Source: Escherichia phage vB_Eco_Solly. From it: a stretch of 64,000 bases of DNA. The notes beneath the pieces were generated by a model. It was given only the letters and a program-made list of their open reading frames with translations. It was not told where the DNA came from and made no database searches. This document shows, piece after piece, positions 1 through 7,539 of the stretch (the first letter of the stretch is position 1; each line of letters starts with the position of its first letter). Location of the stretch: the sequence record OY720021. One strand, given 5' to 3'. The translations under genes and the position numbers were made by a program.

Positions 1-888
1 GGTATGGCTACTTCTATCGCTGAACTTCAGGAAGGTTTCAACGGTTCTACCGATAACCCATGGAATGAAATGGGCTTCCGTATCGATAAACAAGTTATCG
101 AAGCTAAATCTCGCCAGCTGAAAGCTGCTTACTCTATCGAATTAGCACAAGACCTCCGCGCTGTTCACGGTATGGATGCTGATGCTGAACTGTCTGGTAT
201 TCTGGCTACCGAAATCATGCTGGAAATCAACCGTGAAGTTGTTGATTGGATTAACTACTCAGCTCAGGTTGGTAAATCTGGTATGACCCTGACTCCGGGT
301 TCTAAAGCTGGTGTATTTGACTTCCAGGATCCGATTGATATTCGTGGTGCTCGCTGGGCGGGTGAATCCTTTAAAGCTCTGTTGTTCCAGATTGACAAAG
401 AAGCAGTTGAAATTGCTCGTCAGACCGGTCGTGGTGAAGGTAACTTCATTATCGCTTCCCGTAACGTAGTTAACGTTCTGGCTTCAGTTGATACTGGCAT
501 TTCTTATGCTGCACAGGGTCTGGCTACCGGCTTTAACACTGATACTACCAAGTCAGTATTTGCTGGTGTTCTGGGTGGTAAATACCGCGTATATATCGAC
601 CAGTATGCTAAACAGGATTATTTCACTGTAGGTTATAAAGGTCCGAACGAAATGGATGCTGGTATTTACTATGCTCCATATGTAGCTCTGACTCCGCTGC
701 GTGGTTCCGATCCGAAGAACTTCCAACCAGTAATGGGATTCAAAACTCGTTACGGTATCGGTATCAACCCATTTGCAGAATCCGCTGCTCAGGCTCCGGC
801 TTCTCGCATTCAGAGTGGTATGCCTTCTATCCTGAACAGCCTTGGTAAGAACGCTTACTTCCGCCGTGTATATGTTAAAGGTATCTAA
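1..888 (+). CDS. 23: Major capsid protein gp23, C-terminal 294 codons (5' end lies outside window)
   Basis: ORF track 4..888 in frame with window edge; shares ELAQDL / ATE(I/M) / YYAPY motifs with the downstream gp24 paralog; followed by GC hairpin and the gene 24 late promoter. Confidence 0.92.
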   Translation, partial: GMATSIAELQEGFNGSTDNPWNEMGFRIDKQVIEAKSRQLKAAYSIELAQDLRAVHGMDADAELSGILATEIMLEINREVVDWINYSAQVGKSGMTLTPGSKAGVFDFQDPIDIRGARWAGESFKALLFQIDKEAVEIARQTGRGEGNFIIASRNVVNVLASVDTGISYAAQGLATGFNTDTTKSVFAGVLGGKYRVYIDQYAKQDYFTVGYKGPNEMDAGIYYAPYVALTPLRGSDPKNFQPVMGFKTRYGIGINPFAESAAQAPASRIQSGMPSILNSLGKNAYFRRVYVKGI

Positions 889-902
889 TCTTTGACGATT
901 TA

Positions 903-932
903 AGGGACCTTCGGGTCCCTTTAGTTGTTTTT
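903..932 (+). terminator. Intrinsic terminator hairpin after gene 23
   Basis: AGGGACC-TTCG-GGTCCCT stem-loop followed by T-rich tract. Confidence 0.7.
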
Positions 933-936
933 ATGG

Positions 937-944
937 TATAAATA
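937..944 (+). promoter_or_regulatory. Late promoter TATAAATA for gene 24
   Basis: Exact TATAAATA 28 nt upstream of gene 24 ATG. Confidence 0.7.
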
Positions 945-971
945 AATCATATAAACTGAAAGGAAAGCGCA

Positions 972-2255
972 ATGGCTAAAATCAACGAACTTCTGCGCGA
1001 ATCAACCACAACGAATAGCAACTCAATCGGTCGCCCAAATCTCGTTGCTTTGACTCGCGCTACCACTAAATTAATATATTCTGACATTGTAGCAACGCAA
1101 AGAACTAATCAACCTGTTGCTGCTTTTTATGGTATCAAATACCTTAACCCAGACAATGAATTTACATTTAAAACTGGTGCTACTTACGCTGGCGAAGCTG
1201 GATATGTAGACCGAGAACAAATCACAGAATTAACAGAAGAGTCTAAATTAACTCTCAATAAAGGCGATTTATTCAAATATAATAATATCGTTTATAAAGT
1301 ATTAGAAGATACTCCATTTGCTGATATTGAAGAAAGCGACTTAGAGTTAGCTCTTCAAATTGCAATCGTTCTTTTAAAGGTTCGTCTATTTTCTGACGCA
1401 GCGTCAACAAGCAAATTTGAAAGCTCTGATAGTGAAATTGCGGATGCTAGATTCCAGATTAATAAATGGCAAACCGCAGTTAAATCTCGTAAACTTAAAA
1501 CTGGTATCACAGTTGAATTAGCGCAAGATTTAGAAGCAAATGGATTCGATGCTCCTAATTTCTTAGAAGATTTGCTTGCAACTGAAATGGCAGATGAAAT
1601 CAATAAAGATATTCTGCAGTCTTTGATTACAGTGTCAAAACGCTATAAAGTTACAGGAATTACTGATAGTGGATTCATCGATTTGAGTTATGCATCTGCA
1701 CCTGAAGCGGGTCGTTCATTATATCGAATGGTATGTGAAATGGTTTCGCATATCCAAAAAGAATCAACTTATACAGCAACGTTCTGTGTTGCTTCTGCTC
1801 GTGCCGCTGCGATTCTTGCTGCTTCAGGTTGGTTAAAACATAAACCAGAAGATGACAAATATCTTTCACAAAATGCCTACGGGTTCTTAGCTAATGGTTT
1901 ACCACTTTATTGCGATACTAACAGCCCATTAGATTATGTAATCGTTGGCGTAGTAGAAAATATCGGTGAAAAAGAAATTGTTGGATCAATTTTCTATGCT
2001 CCGTATACAGAAGGTCTTGACTTAGATGACCCTGAACATGTAGGTGCATTTAAAGTTGTGGTTGATCCAGAAAGCTTACAACCGTCTATCGGTTTATTAG
2101 TTAGATATGCTTTATCAGCAAATCCTTATACCGTAGCAAAAGATGAAAAAGAAGCAAGAATAATTGACGGTGGAGACATGGATAAAATGGCGGGTCGTTC
2201 AGATTTGTCTGTTTTATTAGGTGTTAAATTACCAAAAATTATTATTGATGAATAA
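972..2255 (+). CDS. 24: Capsid vertex protein gp24 (gp23 paralog)
   Basis: 427 aa; clear paralogy to the gp23 fragment; TATAAATA at 937..944 and SD upstream. Confidence 0.9.
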   Translation: MAKINELLRESTTTNSNSIGRPNLVALTRATTKLIYSDIVATQRTNQPVAAFYGIKYLNPDNEFTFKTGATYAGEAGYVDREQITELTEESKLTLNKGDLFKYNNIVYKVLEDTPFADIEESDLELALQIAIVLLKVRLFSDAASTSKFESSDSEIADARFQINKWQTAVKSRKLKTGITVELAQDLEANGFDAPNFLEDLLATEMADEINKDILQSLITVSKRYKVTGITDSGFIDLSYASAPEAGRSLYRMVCEMVSHIQKESTYTATFCVASARAAAILAASGWLKHKPEDDKYLSQNAYGFLANGLPLYCDTNSPLDYVIVGVVENIGEKEIVGSIFYAPYTEGLDLDDPEHVGAFKVVVDPESLQPSIGLLVRYALSANPYTVAKDEKEARIIDGGDMDKMAGRSDLSVLLGVKLPKIIIDE

Positions 2256-2257
2256 AG

Positions 2258-2282
2258 CAAAGGGACCGAAAGGTCCCTTTTT
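2258..2282. terminator. Bidirectional terminator between convergent genes 24 and rnlB
   Basis: AAAGGGACC-GAAA-GGTCCCTTT with A/T runs on both sides. Confidence 0.7.
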
Positions 2283-2284
2283 AT

Positions 2285-3289
2285 TTAGCTCACCAACTCA
2301 ATCCAAGCTGGACGAAGTACATCTTGTACCATTTTAACTAATTCCTTTTTAATCAAAGAAGGATTATCTGCTTGAGTTAGAGTAATACCTTCACGAGAAG
2401 TTTCTTCCAAAATATCTTGAACAGTTAGCCCCATCACCTTTCCAAAATCTTTAGGACCAATTTCGCCAATTTTAGAAATAACGTTATTTACTCGGTTCAG
2501 TGTAACGTAACAAGCTAAAATTCCCACCAATTTGTTATCAGCTTCTGATAGTTCAACTTTAGCTTTAATAGGCTTATCGGACTTTTTCTTTTCACTAAAT
2601 TTGGAATTCTTGCATTTAATTGCTACACGATTTCCATTACGAAGCCAAGAAGGATAACAAGGTTTCAATACATATCCTTCAGCGGTAAATACTTCGCCTT
2701 TTGCTTCGGCATTCCAAACGCATTTATTTGCATCAACTAATCCAGCATGGTCTACTGTAAAATTATAATCTTGGACGACAGAATCTAAATCATTTGGCAA
2801 TTTAATAAGCTCTTCAAATTTACCGCGACCTAAAAGTGGAGCCATTTTAAATTTAAATGTATTGCAGAATGATTCCATCATATAATCATCGACATAAGTC
2901 ACATCACCACTTTCTGTAATAACAATAATGTCAAATACATAAAAATCTTTATCACCATAATCGACATTCTTCTGAATGCCAGGTCCAGCGAATTCGCCAA
3001 AGACTTGATAAGATACAACCGCTGAAGTTTCCATAATATCTTGTACTGCTTTAATGGAATCAGCGTAATTCTTTAAAATAATTTCATACCCAAAGAAATC
3101 TTCAGCAGGAAGAATGGGGCCAGTACGTTTAGCGCAAGTCACTTTATCACGCTCAATAATCAACGAGAAATTTGTGCCGTGAATCTTTTCACGAGCTACC
3201 CATTCCCCACCAGTCAATCCCAAACTATAAAGTTTTTCAATAAATTTAGAGTTGTAATGATTTTCAAGACTGCTATACTTTTTAAACAT
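2285..3289 (-). CDS. rnlB: RNA ligase 2 (Rnl2)
   Basis: 334 aa; nucleotidyltransferase motif I KIHGTN near N-terminus; T4 rnlB position after gene 24. Confidence 0.85.
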
Positions 3290-3298
3290 AATTAATCC

Positions 3299-3577
3299 TC
3301 AAAATGTAATTTCTAACCAATCACCATCACGCTGATCACTATTGACTTTAAAGCTGAATCCTTCTTTTCTCAGCCAATCACCAATTTCTTCAGTAATCAA
3401 TTTATCACGAGCAATACAATAATAATTAAAATGTGTTTTACCTTGTTCAGCTGCTTTATTAGCAAGTTCCGAAAAATCTTTAATAAAACACTCTAGCTTA
3501 AACTGTTTACTTTTGAATGCTTTTTCGCGTAATTGATTAGCAAAAGATTCATTTTCATAAAGATCATACTGTTCCAT
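3299..3577 (-). CDS. Hypothetical protein (T4 24.2-like position)
   Basis: 92 aa ORF tightly packed between rnlB and hoc. Confidence 0.5.
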   Translation of the reverse strand: MEQYDLYENESFANQLREKAFKSKQFKLECFIKDFSELANKAAEQGKTHFNYYCIARDKLITEEIGDWLRKEGFSFKVNSDQRDGDWLEITF

Positions 3578-3779
3578 TTTTCACCTTTTTATTGATATGT
3601 CTTTTTCTATAGACAACTTTTTCTCGAGTTTCAAATTTATTCTTAGCAGTCATAGCTCGAGCCCATAATACAGCCACTTCTTTCACCTGTAAGTTTAATT
3701 CACGAGCAATTTCAATGAATGACTTTCCAGACTCATGAAGAGTAAACACCACAACCTCAGTTCTCATAATCAATCTCAT
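3564..3779 (-). CDS. Small helix-turn-helix protein (T4 24.3-like position)
   Basis: 71 aa; HTH-like segment SGKSFIEIARELNLQVKEV; true start may be an internal Met. Confidence 0.5.
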   Translation of the reverse strand: MRLIMRTEVVVFTLHESGKSFIEIARELNLQVKEVAVLWARAMTAKNKFETREKVVYRKRHINKKVKNGTV

Positions 3780-3868
3780 GTTATCGAGTTGGTGCCATTA
3801 TATACATCATTTTCTGATTGTGTTTTGTGTGCTTTCAAAATGAAGAAAGGGGCCGAAGCCCCTTATGA

Positions 3869-5287
3869 TTATGGATAGGTATAGATGATACCAGTTTCTA
3901 AAGCAGTTTTGTGAATGATGTATCCATTACGCGATTCTTGGACATCAACTTCTGGATAGTCTTTCATCATCTTCTGAAGAGTGTAACGATGCAGGTAGTA
4001 TTTACTATCTGGATCTTCAGTTTTCCAATCTTTACCTTCTTCAGTCATTTTTTGGATTTCATCCATAACCCACCAACCGCACCAGATGTAAGCTGAGCTA
4101 CGGTGTGGAAGAGGATGAACATAAGGTAATTCACCTTCTGGTTCTGGAGCAACTTTATCAGTTACCTGAACTTGACCTTCTGCCGTAATAGTTTTGCTAT
4201 CATAATCAGCAGCAGTAACAGTTGCAGTAACTTCAATAGTTTGACTTCCAATAGATGAGGTATCAACTGTATATACATTAGTTGACCCTTCTACAGGAGA
4301 AGAATCTTTCTTCCATGAATACTCAATTTGCGCTTCTTCTGGAGCATCAGTGACATTAGCAGTAAATGTAGCCGAAGCATCTTGCTGAACGTTAATAGAA
4401 GGAGGAGACAATGTAACCTGTGGATTCATTGTCTTCTTATTAACCGTTAATGATACTTCATTCGAAGTAACTTCCTTTTCATTGTAATTTTCAGCAGTTA
4501 CTTGGGCTACGCATTTAATTCTTTTTACTCCACTTGTAGTTGGAGTATAGTTAAATGTAGAGTTAGTTTCTCCACCAACTTGTGAATCATCTACATACCA
4601 CTGATACGTAGCAGATGCTCCATCAGGTTGAGAAGCTAAGGCAGCAGTAAATTGAACTGGGGTTCCGATTACTCCTGCTGGAGGACTATCAGGAGTTACT
4701 GCCAAGGTAGTTGTCTGCTCCTTTTTATTAACAGTCAGTGATACTTCATTAGAAGTAACGCTTAGTGCATCATAATCTGTCGCAGTTACTTGAGCCACAC
4801 ACTTAATTCTTTTTACCCCGCTTTCGGCAGGAGTGTAATTGAACGTAGCGTTAGTTGCTTCGCCCACAGGAGAATCATCTACATACCATTGATAAGTAGC
4901 GTTTGCGCCCGATGGCTGCGAAGCTAAAGCGGCAGTAAATTCAATAGCTGTTCCGATTACTCCAGCGTCAGGGCTATTAGGAGTTACAGCTAAGGTGGTC
5001 GTTTGTGTCTTATTTTGAACTGTGATAGTTGTAGTAGCTTCTGCTGTTTCAGCATCAGTATCTGGGACTGGGTTTGTTGCAACTACTTTAATAGTCTTTT
5101 GACCGGCAGGTCCTTTTAATACATAATTAAAAGTTGCTTCAGCTCCATCTTGTGGAACATCATCTACAGTCCAAGCATATGTAATAGGTCCATCTCCAGT
5201 TTGACCACTGGGTGTAGCAGTAAACTGCTGAGTCTGATCTATAACTCCAGTAGGTGTTTTAGGAGTTATATCAACTGTAAAAGCCAT
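3869..5287 (-). CDS. hoc: Highly immunogenic outer capsid protein Hoc with four Ig-like domains
   Basis: 472 aa; Ig-like repeats rich in T/V/S with YxW and KCVAQVTA motifs; two near-identical 96-aa tandem units; aromatic C-terminal capsid-binding region. Confidence 0.85.
   Translation of the reverse strand: MAFTVDITPKTPTGVIDQTQQFTATPSGQTGDGPITYAWTVDDVPQDGAEATFNYVLKGPAGQKTIKVVATNPVPDTDAETAEATTTITVQNKTQTTTLAVTPNSPDAGVIGTAIEFTAALASQPSGANATYQWYVDDSPVGEATNATFNYTPAESGVKRIKCVAQVTATDYDALSVTSNEVSLTVNKKEQTTTLAVTPDSPPAGVIGTPVQFTAALASQPDGASATYQWYVDDSQVGGETNSTFNYTPTTSGVKRIKCVAQVTAENYNEKEVTSNEVSLTVNKKTMNPQVTLSPPSINVQQDASATFTANVTDAPEEAQIEYSWKKDSSPVEGSTNVYTVDTSSIGSQTIEVTATVTAADYDSKTITAEGQVQVTDKVAPEPEGELPYVHPLPHRSSAYIWCGWWVMDEIQKMTEEGKDWKTEDPDSKYYLHRYTLQKMMKDYPEVDVQESRNGYIIHKTALETGIIYTYP
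4433..5008 (-). repeat. Tandem direct duplication of a 288-bp Ig-domain unit inside hoc
   Basis: Units about 4433..4720 and 4721..5008 align with mostly synonymous or conservative differences. Confidence 0.8.
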
Positions 5288-5296
5288 AAGTTATCC

Positions 5297-5977
5297 TTAT
5301 TTTAATGTTACGAAAGAAGAATTGCGTGTTTCACGAATTAAAACTGATCCGTCACGGTTAATGTAATAAATTAAGCTAAATAAAGTTTGGTGTGCTGACG
5401 CATGCTCAAAACTAGTTGGGTGAGATTTCCAATCAGGAGTTTCAGCAATCCATTGATAAATCCACCAAGGAACAGTGCAGAATCCTGGATTTTTTCCAAT
5501 CAGCTGAAGATTCGGACTAAAGTTTTCCGGAAGAGTAAATACAGACGGCTTTTCAGATTCAATAATCTCAGCTACAGCCTGTTCAAACTTTTCTTCAACA
5601 AAGGGAGTATCTTCAATCAAAACTGAGGTATTTTCAGGAATTTTATCCGTTTCTACTACTTCAATTTTAATGTCAGATTTAACCGGAGAATCAATCAGAA
5701 GTGCTGCTTCTGGATTGACTTCTTCATCGTCATATTTTAATCCCTCTGCGGCATCAGCAGCATCAATTAAGTCTTTAATAGATAACCCATCAGTCTCTGG
5801 CATAGGTTCACTAGCGAGCTTCTGGAGGGCTTCTTCAATATCAACAACGATATTATCAAAAGATTTATTCTTTTTGACCTTTATACCAAACTGTTCAGCA
5901 TATTCAGCTAATTTAGCTTTAGCTTCTTTATTATCATCAAGAGCCTTCAGCTCTGCAATATAATCTTTATCTATCAT
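5297..5977 (-). CDS. inh: Inh-like acidic protein (inhibitor of prohead protease)
   Basis: 226 aa acidic ORF between hoc and uvsW; SD GAGGAAA upstream of ATG. Confidence 0.65.
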   Translation of the reverse strand: MIDKDYIAELKALDDNKEAKAKLAEYAEQFGIKVKKNKSFDNIVVDIEEALQKLASEPMPETDGLSIKDLIDAADAAEGLKYDDEEVNPEAALLIDSPVKSDIKIEVVETDKIPENTSVLIEDTPFVEEKFEQAVAEIIESEKPSVFTLPENFSPNLQLIGKNPGFCTVPWWIYQWIAETPDWKSHPTSFEHASAHQTLFSLIYYINRDGSVLIRETRNSSFVTLK

Positions 5978-6027: not shown

Positions 6028-7539
6028 ATGATTGACATTAAAGCACATTTTTATGATTTTAGTCACGTGAGAATTGACTGTGAAGAAAGTACATTTCATG
6101 AACTCCGTGATTTCTTTAGCTTTGAAGCTGATGGGTATCGTTTTAATCCGAAATACAAATATGGCCACTGGGATGGACGAATCCGTCTTTTAGATTATAA
6201 TCGTCTTCTTCCATTCGGCTTAGTCGGGCAAATTAAAAAGTTCTGTGATAACTTTGGCTATAAAGCCTGGATTGACCCGCAAATTAACGAAAAAGAAGAA
6301 TTATCAAGAAAAGATTTTGATGAATGGCTTTCTAAATTAGAAATCTATTCAGGAAATAAAAGAATTGAACCGCACTGGTATCAAAAAGATGCAGTGTTCG
6401 AAGGATTAGTTAATCGTCGTAGAATTCTTAATCTTCCAACATCCGCTGGTAAATCGTTAATTCAAGCTTTGCTTGCTCGGTATTATTTGGAAAATTATGA
6501 AGGTAAAATTCTTATCATTGTTCCAACAACTGCCTTAACAACTCAGATGGCTGATGACTTCGTCGACTATCGTCTATTCAGTCATGCAATGATAAAGAAA
6601 ATTGGTGGCGGAGCATCAAAAGATGATAAATATAAAAATGATGCACCAGTCGTTGTTGGTACATGGCAAACTGTAGTTAAACAACCAAAAGAATGGTTCT
6701 CACAGTTTGGAATGATGATGAATGATGAATGCCATCTTGCTACAGGAAAAAGTATTTCATCTATCATATCAGGTTTAAATAACTGCATGTTCAAATTCGG
6801 TTTGTCTGGTTCATTACGTGATGGCAAAGCTAATATCATGCAGTATGTTGGGATGTTTGGTGAAATATTTAAACCAGTAACGACTTCTAAATTAATGGAA
6901 GATGGACAAGTAACTGAGCTAAAAATTAATAGTATTTTTCTTCGCTATCCCGATGAGTTCACTACTAAATTAAAGGGAAAAACTTATCAAGAAGAAATAA
7001 AAATTATTACGGGGCTTAGTAAAAGAAATAAATGGATCGCTAAATTAGCTATTAAGCTTGCGCAAAAAGATGAAAACGCTTTTGTCATGTTTAAACATGT
7101 ATCACATGGTAAAGCTATTTTCGATTTAATTAAAAATGAATACGATAAAGTTTATTACGTATCAGGGGAAGTTGATACCGAAACCCGCAATATAATGAAA
7201 ACCTTAGCTGAAAATGGTAAAGGAATAATTATAGTAGCTAGTTATGGTGTATTTTCTACTGGTATTTCAGTTAAAAATCTGCATCACGTTGTTTTAGCGC
7301 ACGGTGTTAAATCAAAAATCATTGTATTACAAACAATCGGTCGTGTATTACGTAAGCATGGTTCTAAGACAATAGCAACCGTCTGGGACCTCATAGATGA
7401 TTGTGGCGTTAAGCCAAAATCTGCTAATACGAAAAAGAAATATGTTCATTTGAACTATCTTTTAAAACACGGCATTGATCGTATTCAGCGCTATGCAGAT
7501 GAAAAATTTAATTACGTAATGAAAACAGTTAATTTATAA
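6028..7539 (+). CDS. uvsW: UvsW SF2 DNA helicase, helicase core (ORF ends prematurely relative to a fused 587-aa form)
   Basis: 503 aa; Walker A PTSAGKS and DECH box; stop TAA 7537..7539 inside a stretch where the downstream frame is already open. Confidence 0.9.
   Translation: MIDIKAHFYDFSHVRIDCEESTFHELRDFFSFEADGYRFNPKYKYGHWDGRIRLLDYNRLLPFGLVGQIKKFCDNFGYKAWIDPQINEKEELSRKDFDEWLSKLEIYSGNKRIEPHWYQKDAVFEGLVNRRRILNLPTSAGKSLIQALLARYYLENYEGKILIIVPTTALTTQMADDFVDYRLFSHAMIKKIGGGASKDDKYKNDAPVVVGTWQTVVKQPKEWFSQFGMMMNDECHLATGKSISSIISGLNNCMFKFGLSGSLRDGKANIMQYVGMFGEIFKPVTTSKLMEDGQVTELKINSIFLRYPDEFTTKLKGKTYQEEIKIITGLSKRNKWIAKLAIKLAQKDENAFVMFKHVSHGKAIFDLIKNEYDKVYYVSGEVDTETRNIMKTLAENGKGIIIVASYGVFSTGISVKNLHHVVLAHGVKSKIIVLQTIGRVLRKHGSKTIATVWDLIDDCGVKPKSANTKKKYVHLNYLLKHGIDRIQRYADEKFNYVMKTVNL

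Follow-up and report, generated by a model that had tools for sequence, protein, structure and literature searches.

Two diverged tandem domain-2 cassettes in the hoc gene of Escherichia phage vB_Eco_Solly point to an old and common allele class

The hoc locus and its neighbourhood

The DNA analysed here, referred to below as the window, is a stretch of 64,000 nucleotides from Escherichia phage vB_Eco_Solly (sequence record OY720021). It belongs to a Tequatrovirus genome and is approximately 97.5% identical over 25 kb to QOTSP, PhiZZ23, FriedrichZschokke, JK1 and teqskov. On its minus strand lies a homologue of hoc (Table 1), for which a phmmer search against PDB sequences returned T4 Hoc (5vf3_Z, 376 aa) as the match, with an E-value of 1.7e-218 and in two stretches, query residues 1-113 corresponding to T4 residues 1-113 and query residues 191-472 to T4 residues 95-376. 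This alignment sets the surplus over T4 Hoc at exactly 96 aa, which is one module of the domain 2 (D2) type. A sequence-only reading of the same DNA had earlier given the protein as 472 aa long compared with about 376 aa in T4, and both the list of open reading frames and the alignment with T4 Hoc agree with this.

When the open reading frames of the window are set against the T4 annotation, hoc is found in a late-gene neighbourhood of the T4 type. It is flanked by a homologue of inh on one side and by homologues of 24.3, 24.2 and rnlB on the other, with uvsW on the far side of inh, and the order uvsW/inh/hoc/24.3/24.2/rnlB is that of T4. The gene is bracketed by a Shine-Dalgarno-like motif and a hairpin resembling an intrinsic terminator. 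The T4 late-promoter motif TATAAATA is absent from the minus strand between positions 3700 and 6100; sigma-70-like matches near hoc were no more frequent than in shuffled sequences, and a hoc promoter was not found in the upstream region that was scanned.

Table 1. Features of the hoc locus, in positions of the window
Feature	Positions	Strand	Description
rnlB	2285-3289		Homologue of T4 rnlB
24.2	3299-3577		Homologue of T4 24.2
24.3	3564-3779		Homologue of T4 24.3
Intrinsic-terminator-like hairpin	3847-3864	minus	A few bases past the hoc stop; AAGGGGCTTCGGCCCCTT and then a T-rich tail; 7-pair stem with 5 G-C pairs
hoc CDS	3869-5287	minus	472 aa, four Ig-like modules and a capsid-binding domain; from the ORF list and the phmmer match to T4 Hoc
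C-terminal capsid-binding domain, aa 377-472, and stop codon	3869-4159	minus	94/96 identical to T4 residues 281-376 (98%)
Ig-like domain 3 (D3, T4 numbering), aa 286-376	4160-4432	minus	Fourth Ig module here; 79/91 identical to T4 residues 190-280 (87%)
D2-type cassette B, aa 190-285	4433-4720	minus	Second tandem unit; 86/96 aa identical to T4 D2
D2-type cassette A, aa 94-189	4721-5008	minus	First tandem unit; 82/96 aa identical to T4 D2
Ig-like domain 1 (D1), aa 1-93	5009-5287	minus	77/93 identical to T4 D1 (83%); beta-sandwich, pLDDT about 81-93 per 10-residue block
Shine-Dalgarno-like AAGGA	5294-5298	minus	Lies 7-11 nt before the hoc ATG and overlaps the stop codon of inh; read from the sequence
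inh	5297-5977		Homologue of T4 inh
uvsW	6028-7539		On the far side of inh

Domain organisation of Hoc

The Pfam models PKD, PKD_4, PKD_3 and Ig_2 scored above their cutoffs, with PKD/Ig-type matches covering A and B in two stretches, and matches to Ig_3 and I-set fell at residues 289-373, in Ig-like domain 3. An AlphaFold2 model of the 472-aa protein, which rested on 39 homologues, comprises four beta-sandwich modules over residues 1-370, with a pLDDT of about 81-95 per 10-residue block. The model is poor in the C-terminal domain (pLDDT 31-64), probably as a consequence of an alignment made up of close homologues only, and the structure of this domain is taken from sequence identity with T4 only. 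The PDB chains that Foldseek ranked highest each have four Ig domains in a row (Dscam1 Ig1-4, Sidekick Ig1-4 and ICAM-5 D1-D4), and RB49 Hoc (3shs) was matched with an E-value of 5e-10. The TM-scores were low (0.17-0.34) because inter-domain angles differ, and no more than the type of match was taken from this search. Domain prediction, which the sequence-only reading had proposed as a check, thus shows the N-terminal string of Ig-like (PKD/I-set-like) domains that is typical of Hoc.

Relationship between the tandem units

Tandem Repeats Finder reported a single array, at positions 4433-4996, with a period of 288, 2.0 copies, 76% matches and a score of 662, and a repeat search paired positions 4433-4720 with 4721-5008 at 74% identity. 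Units A and B are both in frame and 288 nt each, and are identical at 214 of 288 nucleotides (74%) and, in protein, at 76 of 96 residues (79%; residues 94-189 against 190-285). In 500 codon-shuffled versions of the coding sequence the best identity at an offset of 288 was 100 +/- 5 with a maximum of 117, and the repeat of A and B is therefore no chance match. The earlier description of homologous tandem copies encoded by related 288-bp units was thus correct, and its figure of about 85% protein identity was too high.

Since mis-assembly is possible for tandem repeats, we considered whether the assembler could have collapsed or expanded the repeat. The two units differ at 74 of 288 positions (26%) and so cannot represent one read set placed twice; the ORF is intact, and a 1419-nt gene is also present in the independently sequenced RefSeq genomes of RB27 and phiD1, as well as in teqskov, GADU22 and others. 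An artefact of this kind is, in our judgement, practically excluded by the divergence and by the many independent assemblies. Neither of the two outcomes that would have undone the original observation, a lack of homology between the units or a duplication made by assembly, was therefore encountered.

The remaining Ig modules of the same Hoc share only 30-41% identity with A or B and with one another; A and B are therefore the most recently formed pair in a longer-standing series of module duplications. Fourteen of the 20 amino-acid differences between A and B lie outside the predicted strands (Fisher p = 0.02), and the two modules should therefore have a common core but differ in their loops.

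Distribution of cassette numbers

The frequency of this architecture was estimated in 60 records spread evenly over the ranking of 656 matching GenBank phage records, which are a sample and not a census. Size class was read from the length spanned within each record; a query coverage of at least 80% does not separate the classes, since both query units align to the one D2 of a single-copy subject and the pieces are joined. A gene of about 1419 nt, aligned in one piece, was found in 18 of the 60 records, RB27, phiD1, BF15, Sf21 and Hafnia phage IsaacDaniel among them, and a T4-like gene of about 1131 nt in 33. Among the best 120 protein clusters from a search of 5.8 billion proteins, 80 were of 376 aa, 29 of 472 aa and eight of 568 or 570 aa, the last of which have three cassettes. 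The allelic series of 376, 472 and 568 aa rises in steps of 96 aa, that is, by whole multiples of the repeat, as in a copy-number polymorphism. Phage Killian and the three-copy alleles have a third cassette type (C), and the second unit of P0051 is only 56% identical to its own first unit.

The hoc gene of teqskov is 98.5% identical in nucleotide sequence to that of the window, and the GenBank record of moskry already carries a repeat_region annotated within hoc. On these comparisons the two-cassette hoc of the window is a common, ordinary allele, sharing 94-98.5% identity with many deposited phages. Variation in the number of Ig domains in Hoc has already been published (PMC10385173, PMC11853027), and the allele itself has been deposited many times and annotated as Hoc. 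The window does have one module more than T4, as the sequence-only reading had stated, but the form is widespread among relatives, which have one, two or three cassettes.

Related size classes are seen in another hoc lineage, that of Dhakavirus IME341 (L005) and its relatives, with genes of 849, 1134 and 1419 nt; SP18, an example of the 849-nt gene, is a Gaprivervirus. The hoc gene of L006 carries a tandem pair of the D3-type module, 80% identical in protein. Ig modules have therefore been duplicated in tandem and lost more than once in hoc.

Age of the split between A and B

Codon-based comparisons were made on 25 usable hoc genes: 12 two-copy genes from GenBank or IMG/VR together with that of the window, nine single-copy genes (including T4, RB18 and RB59) and three three-copy genes. 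The IMG/VR protein scan gave 21 loci only, of which just four were close relatives, and GenBank loci were taken individually for the gene set. The hoc genes of PST, FriedrichZschokke and T2, which are frameshifted or fragmented, were left out of the codon analyses.

The 74 differences between A and B in the window are distributed over the three codon positions as 17, 12 and 45. By the Nei-Gojobori method pS is 0.62 and dS about 1.3, which is near saturation, with a dN of 0.155 and a dN/dS of about 0.12. Across the 13 two-copy phages the within-phage pS between A and B ranges from 0.43 to 0.66 (median 0.58), with a median dS of about 1.1. The median dS between orthologous segments of different phages is lowest in the C-terminal domain (0.16) and rises through D1 (0.25), B (0.31) and D3 (0.34) to A (0.46), and the A-B dS of the window is therefore 2.5-7 times the median orthologous values (0.16-0.46) among these 13 phages.

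Clustering of the units gave a consistent result. In a UPGMA tree of 45 units from the 25 genes, an A-type group, containing nearly all of the first-position units, is set apart from a B-type group; units of one phage do not group together, and it is the type and not the phage that sets the clusters, across two genera. At 17 diagnostic sites, all located at nucleotides 93-216 of the unit, nearly all first units are of type A and nearly all last units of type B. Unit A of the window has the A-type base at 16 of the 17 sites, the remaining site fitting neither type, and unit B has the B-type base at all 17. Unit A is 100% identical to the first unit of teqskov and 97% identical to those of moskry and GADU22, and unit B is 92-95% identical to unit B of teqskov, GADU22 and moskry.

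The sequence-only reading had attributed the second unit to a recent in-gene duplication, by which a module would have been added to a T4-like three-Ig Hoc in the lineage of this phage itself. It is true that A and B are adjacent, in frame, equal in length (288 nt) and clearly homologous, and that T4 has one such unit only. A recent event should however have left nearly identical copies, confined to one shallow lineage and closer to each other than to their orthologues, whereas DNA identity is 74%, synonymous sites are near saturation and the divergence of A from B exceeds all of the sampled orthologous divergence between phages. Moreover, the positions of the A and B types agree across 13 two-copy phages (RB27, phiD1 and a Mosigvirus among them), and the architecture is common to about 30% of the sampled relatives. 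A recent origin is thus refuted, and this part of the earlier claim is not upheld. The synonymous divergence between the units, considered together with their clustering by type, indicates instead that A and B separated long before any of the sampled hoc alleles of present-day Tequatrovirus and Mosigvirus phages diverged from one another, and the substitution pattern indicates that both cassettes are maintained under purifying selection.

Proposed recombination and history of the cassettes

We consider it probable that hoc in the window represents an old and common allele class, composed of D1, A, B, D3 and the capsid-binding domain, in which domain 2 occurs twice, as tandem cassettes that have diverged. 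In the mechanism that we propose, cassettes would recombine unequally, by homologous exchange out of register in the course of replication or co-infection, and so change in number, and the whole hoc gene would also be exchanged between phages. Misaligned pairing of A with B, with the loss of one period, would give chimeras with an A head and a B tail; the products could be A-only, B-only or A-head/B-tail single-copy alleles and three-copy alleles of the form A-x-B.

Several features of the sampled alleles bear on this mechanism. Pure A single-copy alleles are found in RB18 and IMGVR_2938479101, and B-type single-copy alleles in T4, RB59 and mar005P1, the T4 unit being of type B with a patch of 14 A-type sites near its 3' end. 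Two single units begin as one type and end as the other, that of FL08 with 24 consecutive A-sites followed by B-sites and that of IMGVR_2974787500 with 13 A-sites followed by B-sites, although ordinary allelic recombination between A and B could also yield these. The three-copy alleles have mosaic middle units. Cassette number varies even among genomes that share 97.4% identity with the window across 25 kb, and FriedrichZschokke has one unit between flanks almost identical to those of the window. In the Mosigvirus moskry, hoc is 95% identical to that of the window and the flanking genes only about 65-80%.

Some of the 376-aa alleles have the appearance of a two-copy allele from which a unit has been deleted. 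This qualifies the earlier notion of an extra Ig domain arising by tandem duplication within the gene: there is one more D2-type module than in T4, and it is an in-frame tandem copy, but to call it extra is to take T4 as the standard. In terms of direction, a two-copy ancestor losing a unit and a one-copy ancestor gaining one would both be compatible with the chimeras. In the window allele, uninterrupted in-register identity of A with B extends over 17 nt at most, and intragenic unequal recombination or spontaneous deletion should therefore be rare in this allele.

A different history would have A and B diverge first as single-copy domain-2 alleles in separate phages, to be joined later by an out-of-register crossover of co-infecting genomes, so that the array would be younger than the split and the single-copy state ancestral. 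The existence of pure A and pure B single-copy alleles is in keeping with this, as is the movement of hoc between genera as a cassette, and the ends of the unit (nucleotides 1-92 and 217-288), which have no type-diagnostic sites, could have given the homology for out-of-register pairing. Against it, the A-B order is found in 11 of the 13 sampled two-copy alleles (the second unit of Killian and the first unit of PuKrdSF3 fall in the third type), which fits a single origin although it gives no date; the FL08 and IMGVR_2974787500 chimeras, with their differing breakpoints, are products expected of deletions in an A-B array; and the independent tandem duplications of another module in Dhakavirus-related hoc genes suggest that duplication in cis is frequent in hoc. 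Taking these points together we regard a fusion of alleles as unlikely, and retain the old two-cassette allele class, with loss and gain of units by unequal recombination, as the preferred explanation.

A broader reading is offered more tentatively. It is possible that the domain-2 region of hoc in Tequatrovirus and Mosigvirus is a long-lived shuffling array, with at least three anciently diverged cassette types (A, B and C, and a fourth, very divergent one in P0051) that have distinct loop-encoding cores and occur in one to three copies and in varied order as a result of unequal recombination and of whole-gene transfer between genera. The three-Ig Hoc of T4 might then be a derived state, partly a product of deletion or conversion, within a balanced polymorphism through which fibre length and glycan specificity are tuned.

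Capsid binding and possible function

The C-terminal domain, homologous to T4 residues 281-376, has kept the aromatic and basic contact residues of T4 Hoc. All seven positions checked are conserved: Y389, H391, H395, R396, W402, W405 and W406 correspond to T4 Y293, H295, H299, R300, W306, W309 and W310. In the available text of PMC10385173, Y293, H295, W309, W310 and R300 are listed as conserved and at or near the interface between Hoc and gp23, H299 and R300 are placed in charge interactions with gp23, and W306 figures in an analysis of steric clashes. Given 94/96 identity and the retention of these residues, it is very likely that the Hoc of the window binds at the centres of gp23 hexamers as T4 Hoc does. 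The protein has a pI of 4.39 and T4 Hoc one of 4.74, both acidic, as Hoc homologues are described in the same source.

The four-domain fibre of T4 Hoc measures 180 Å (PMC10385173, available text). If this length divides evenly among the four domains, the fibre in the window would be longer by one Ig module (about 45 Å) and would reach about 225 Å. Both cassettes end in an S-L-T motif, at residues 183-185 and 279-281, and in the D2 of PNJ-9 Hoc contact with MUC2/fucose has been mapped to S183-L184-T185 (Fu et al. 2024, PMC11853027). We infer that the window Hoc presents two non-identical D2 surfaces with the motif in each. Together with the longer predicted fibre, these surfaces make it plausible that the protein has a longer reach, or a higher avidity for glycans through the predicted doubling of the S-L-T site, and that its antigenicity is altered; the changes in mucus adherence and antigenicity suggested by the sequence-only reading would thus be plausible. 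A search of the literature found no functional assay for any 472-aa Hoc.

Hoc is the model for how phages adhere to mucus and is in wide use as a display platform, with the three-Ig form of T4 as the reference. That about one third of close relatives have two D2 cassettes, and some have three, bears on the extrapolation of T4 binding and immunogenicity results to therapeutic T4-like phages. The natural variants with one, two and three cassettes are suited to the study of fibre length and module identity in mucin binding.

Comparison with known Hoc proteins

The literature was searched for an explicit duplication of hoc D2 or a series of D2 cassettes in Tequatrovirus; none was found, and the available texts of PMC10385173 and PMC11853027 offer general statements on variable Ig number. 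The first of these (Fokine et al. 2023) describes 650 Hoc homologues with strings of one to ten Ig-like domains and great variability even in close relatives of T4.

T4 Hoc is the product of the same gene at the same inh-hoc-24.3 locus, with D1 83%, D3 87% and the capsid-binding domain 98% identical to those of the window. It differs in having one D2 cassette, of type B with a small A patch, whereas the window has A followed by B and is 96 aa longer. The 472-aa Hoc proteins of teqskov, GADU22, RB27 and phiD1 (Tequatrovirus) and of moskry (Mosigvirus) have an architecture and cassette order identical to those of the window, and differ from it at points only, the differences from teqskov being concentrated in cassette B. 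The 568-570-aa Hoc proteins (UGKSEcP1, UGKSEcP2 and a contig of GCA_050537045.1) share D1, D3, the C-terminal domain and the 96-aa cassette period, but have three cassettes, including one of the type C that is also present in Killian.

More distantly, RB49 Hoc (PDB 3SHS, the N-terminal three Ig domains) and the family described in PMC10385173 likewise consist, in the available text, of Ig-like domains strung in a line on a capsid-binding domain that is conserved, with RB49 Hoc only about 22% identical to T4 Hoc. The variant Hoc of PNJ-9, whose gene has only about 65% DNA identity to T4 hoc, is also a T4-like variant in domain number, but of the loss type, having two Ig domains and lacking D3 (PMC11853027). 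The S-L-T motif of its D2 recurs at the end of both cassettes of the window.

Relationships of the hoc gene

The hoc gene of vB_Eco_Solly and that of the Mosigvirus phage moskry (MN850651.1) are about 95% identical, while the flanks, comprising inh, uvsW and the region from 24.3 to rnlB, carry 13-42 mismatches per 100 nt. Since the high-identity tract coincides with the gene itself, it appears from these alignments that Mosigvirus and Tequatrovirus have exchanged hoc in its entirety. In T4, in Yersinia phage PST and in the contig of GCA_050537045.1, inh is separated from uvsW by segE, a homing-endonuclease gene, and in some relatives such a mobile endonuclease adjacent to hoc could favour local gene conversion. 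The segE gene is missing from the inh-uvsW gap of the window, where the two genes are separated by about 50 nt.

Coordinates of features discussed in the text
Feature	Sequence	Position	Strand
hoc	OY720021	3869-5287	-
Cassette A (288-nt Ig unit)	OY720021	4721-5008	
Cassette B (288-nt Ig unit)	OY720021	4433-4720	
inh-uvsW gap	OY720021	5978-6027	
Hoc-like ORF	IMGVR_UViG_2706796453_000001	31-3150	

Exchange on a smaller scale is also suggested. Few differences separate the window hoc from that of phage teqskov, and 14 of these fall within 300 nt spanning cassette B, with cassette A identical in both; this clustering suggests that cassette B contains a small recombination or conversion patch.

Several deposited phages carry a disrupted hoc. 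In FriedrichZschokke the annotated length is 278 aa, in PST the gene is frameshifted (match of 1420 nt, with an internal start codon used for the annotated CDS), and in one T2 record it is broken into three fragments. These disruptions are consistent with hoc being dispensable in the laboratory. One 472-aa Hoc cluster (P0010, 58 members) bears the NCBI name 'endonuclease [Shigella sonnei]', which is probably a mis-annotated phage sequence within a bacterial assembly.

Module number in Hoc-like proteins

A separate hoc lineage is represented by Dhakavirus IME341 (loci L005 and L046), Gaprivervirus SP18 (L047) and two further loci, L006 and L011, and has its own domain-number series of 282, about 377 and 471-472 aa. 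In L006 the D3-type module forms a tandem pair whose copies are identical at 72 of 90 aa, and the pair is a module duplication of independent origin. The IMG/VR contig encodes a 1039-aa ORF, its putative start taken as the first ATG past the preceding stop, reading upstream, and its C-terminal end is a Hoc-type capsid-binding domain. The predicted product would be a Hoc-like protein of giant size, rich in Ig-like repeats, and, given that start, comparable to the Hoc of Muldoon, for which PMC10385173 gives 1174 aa.
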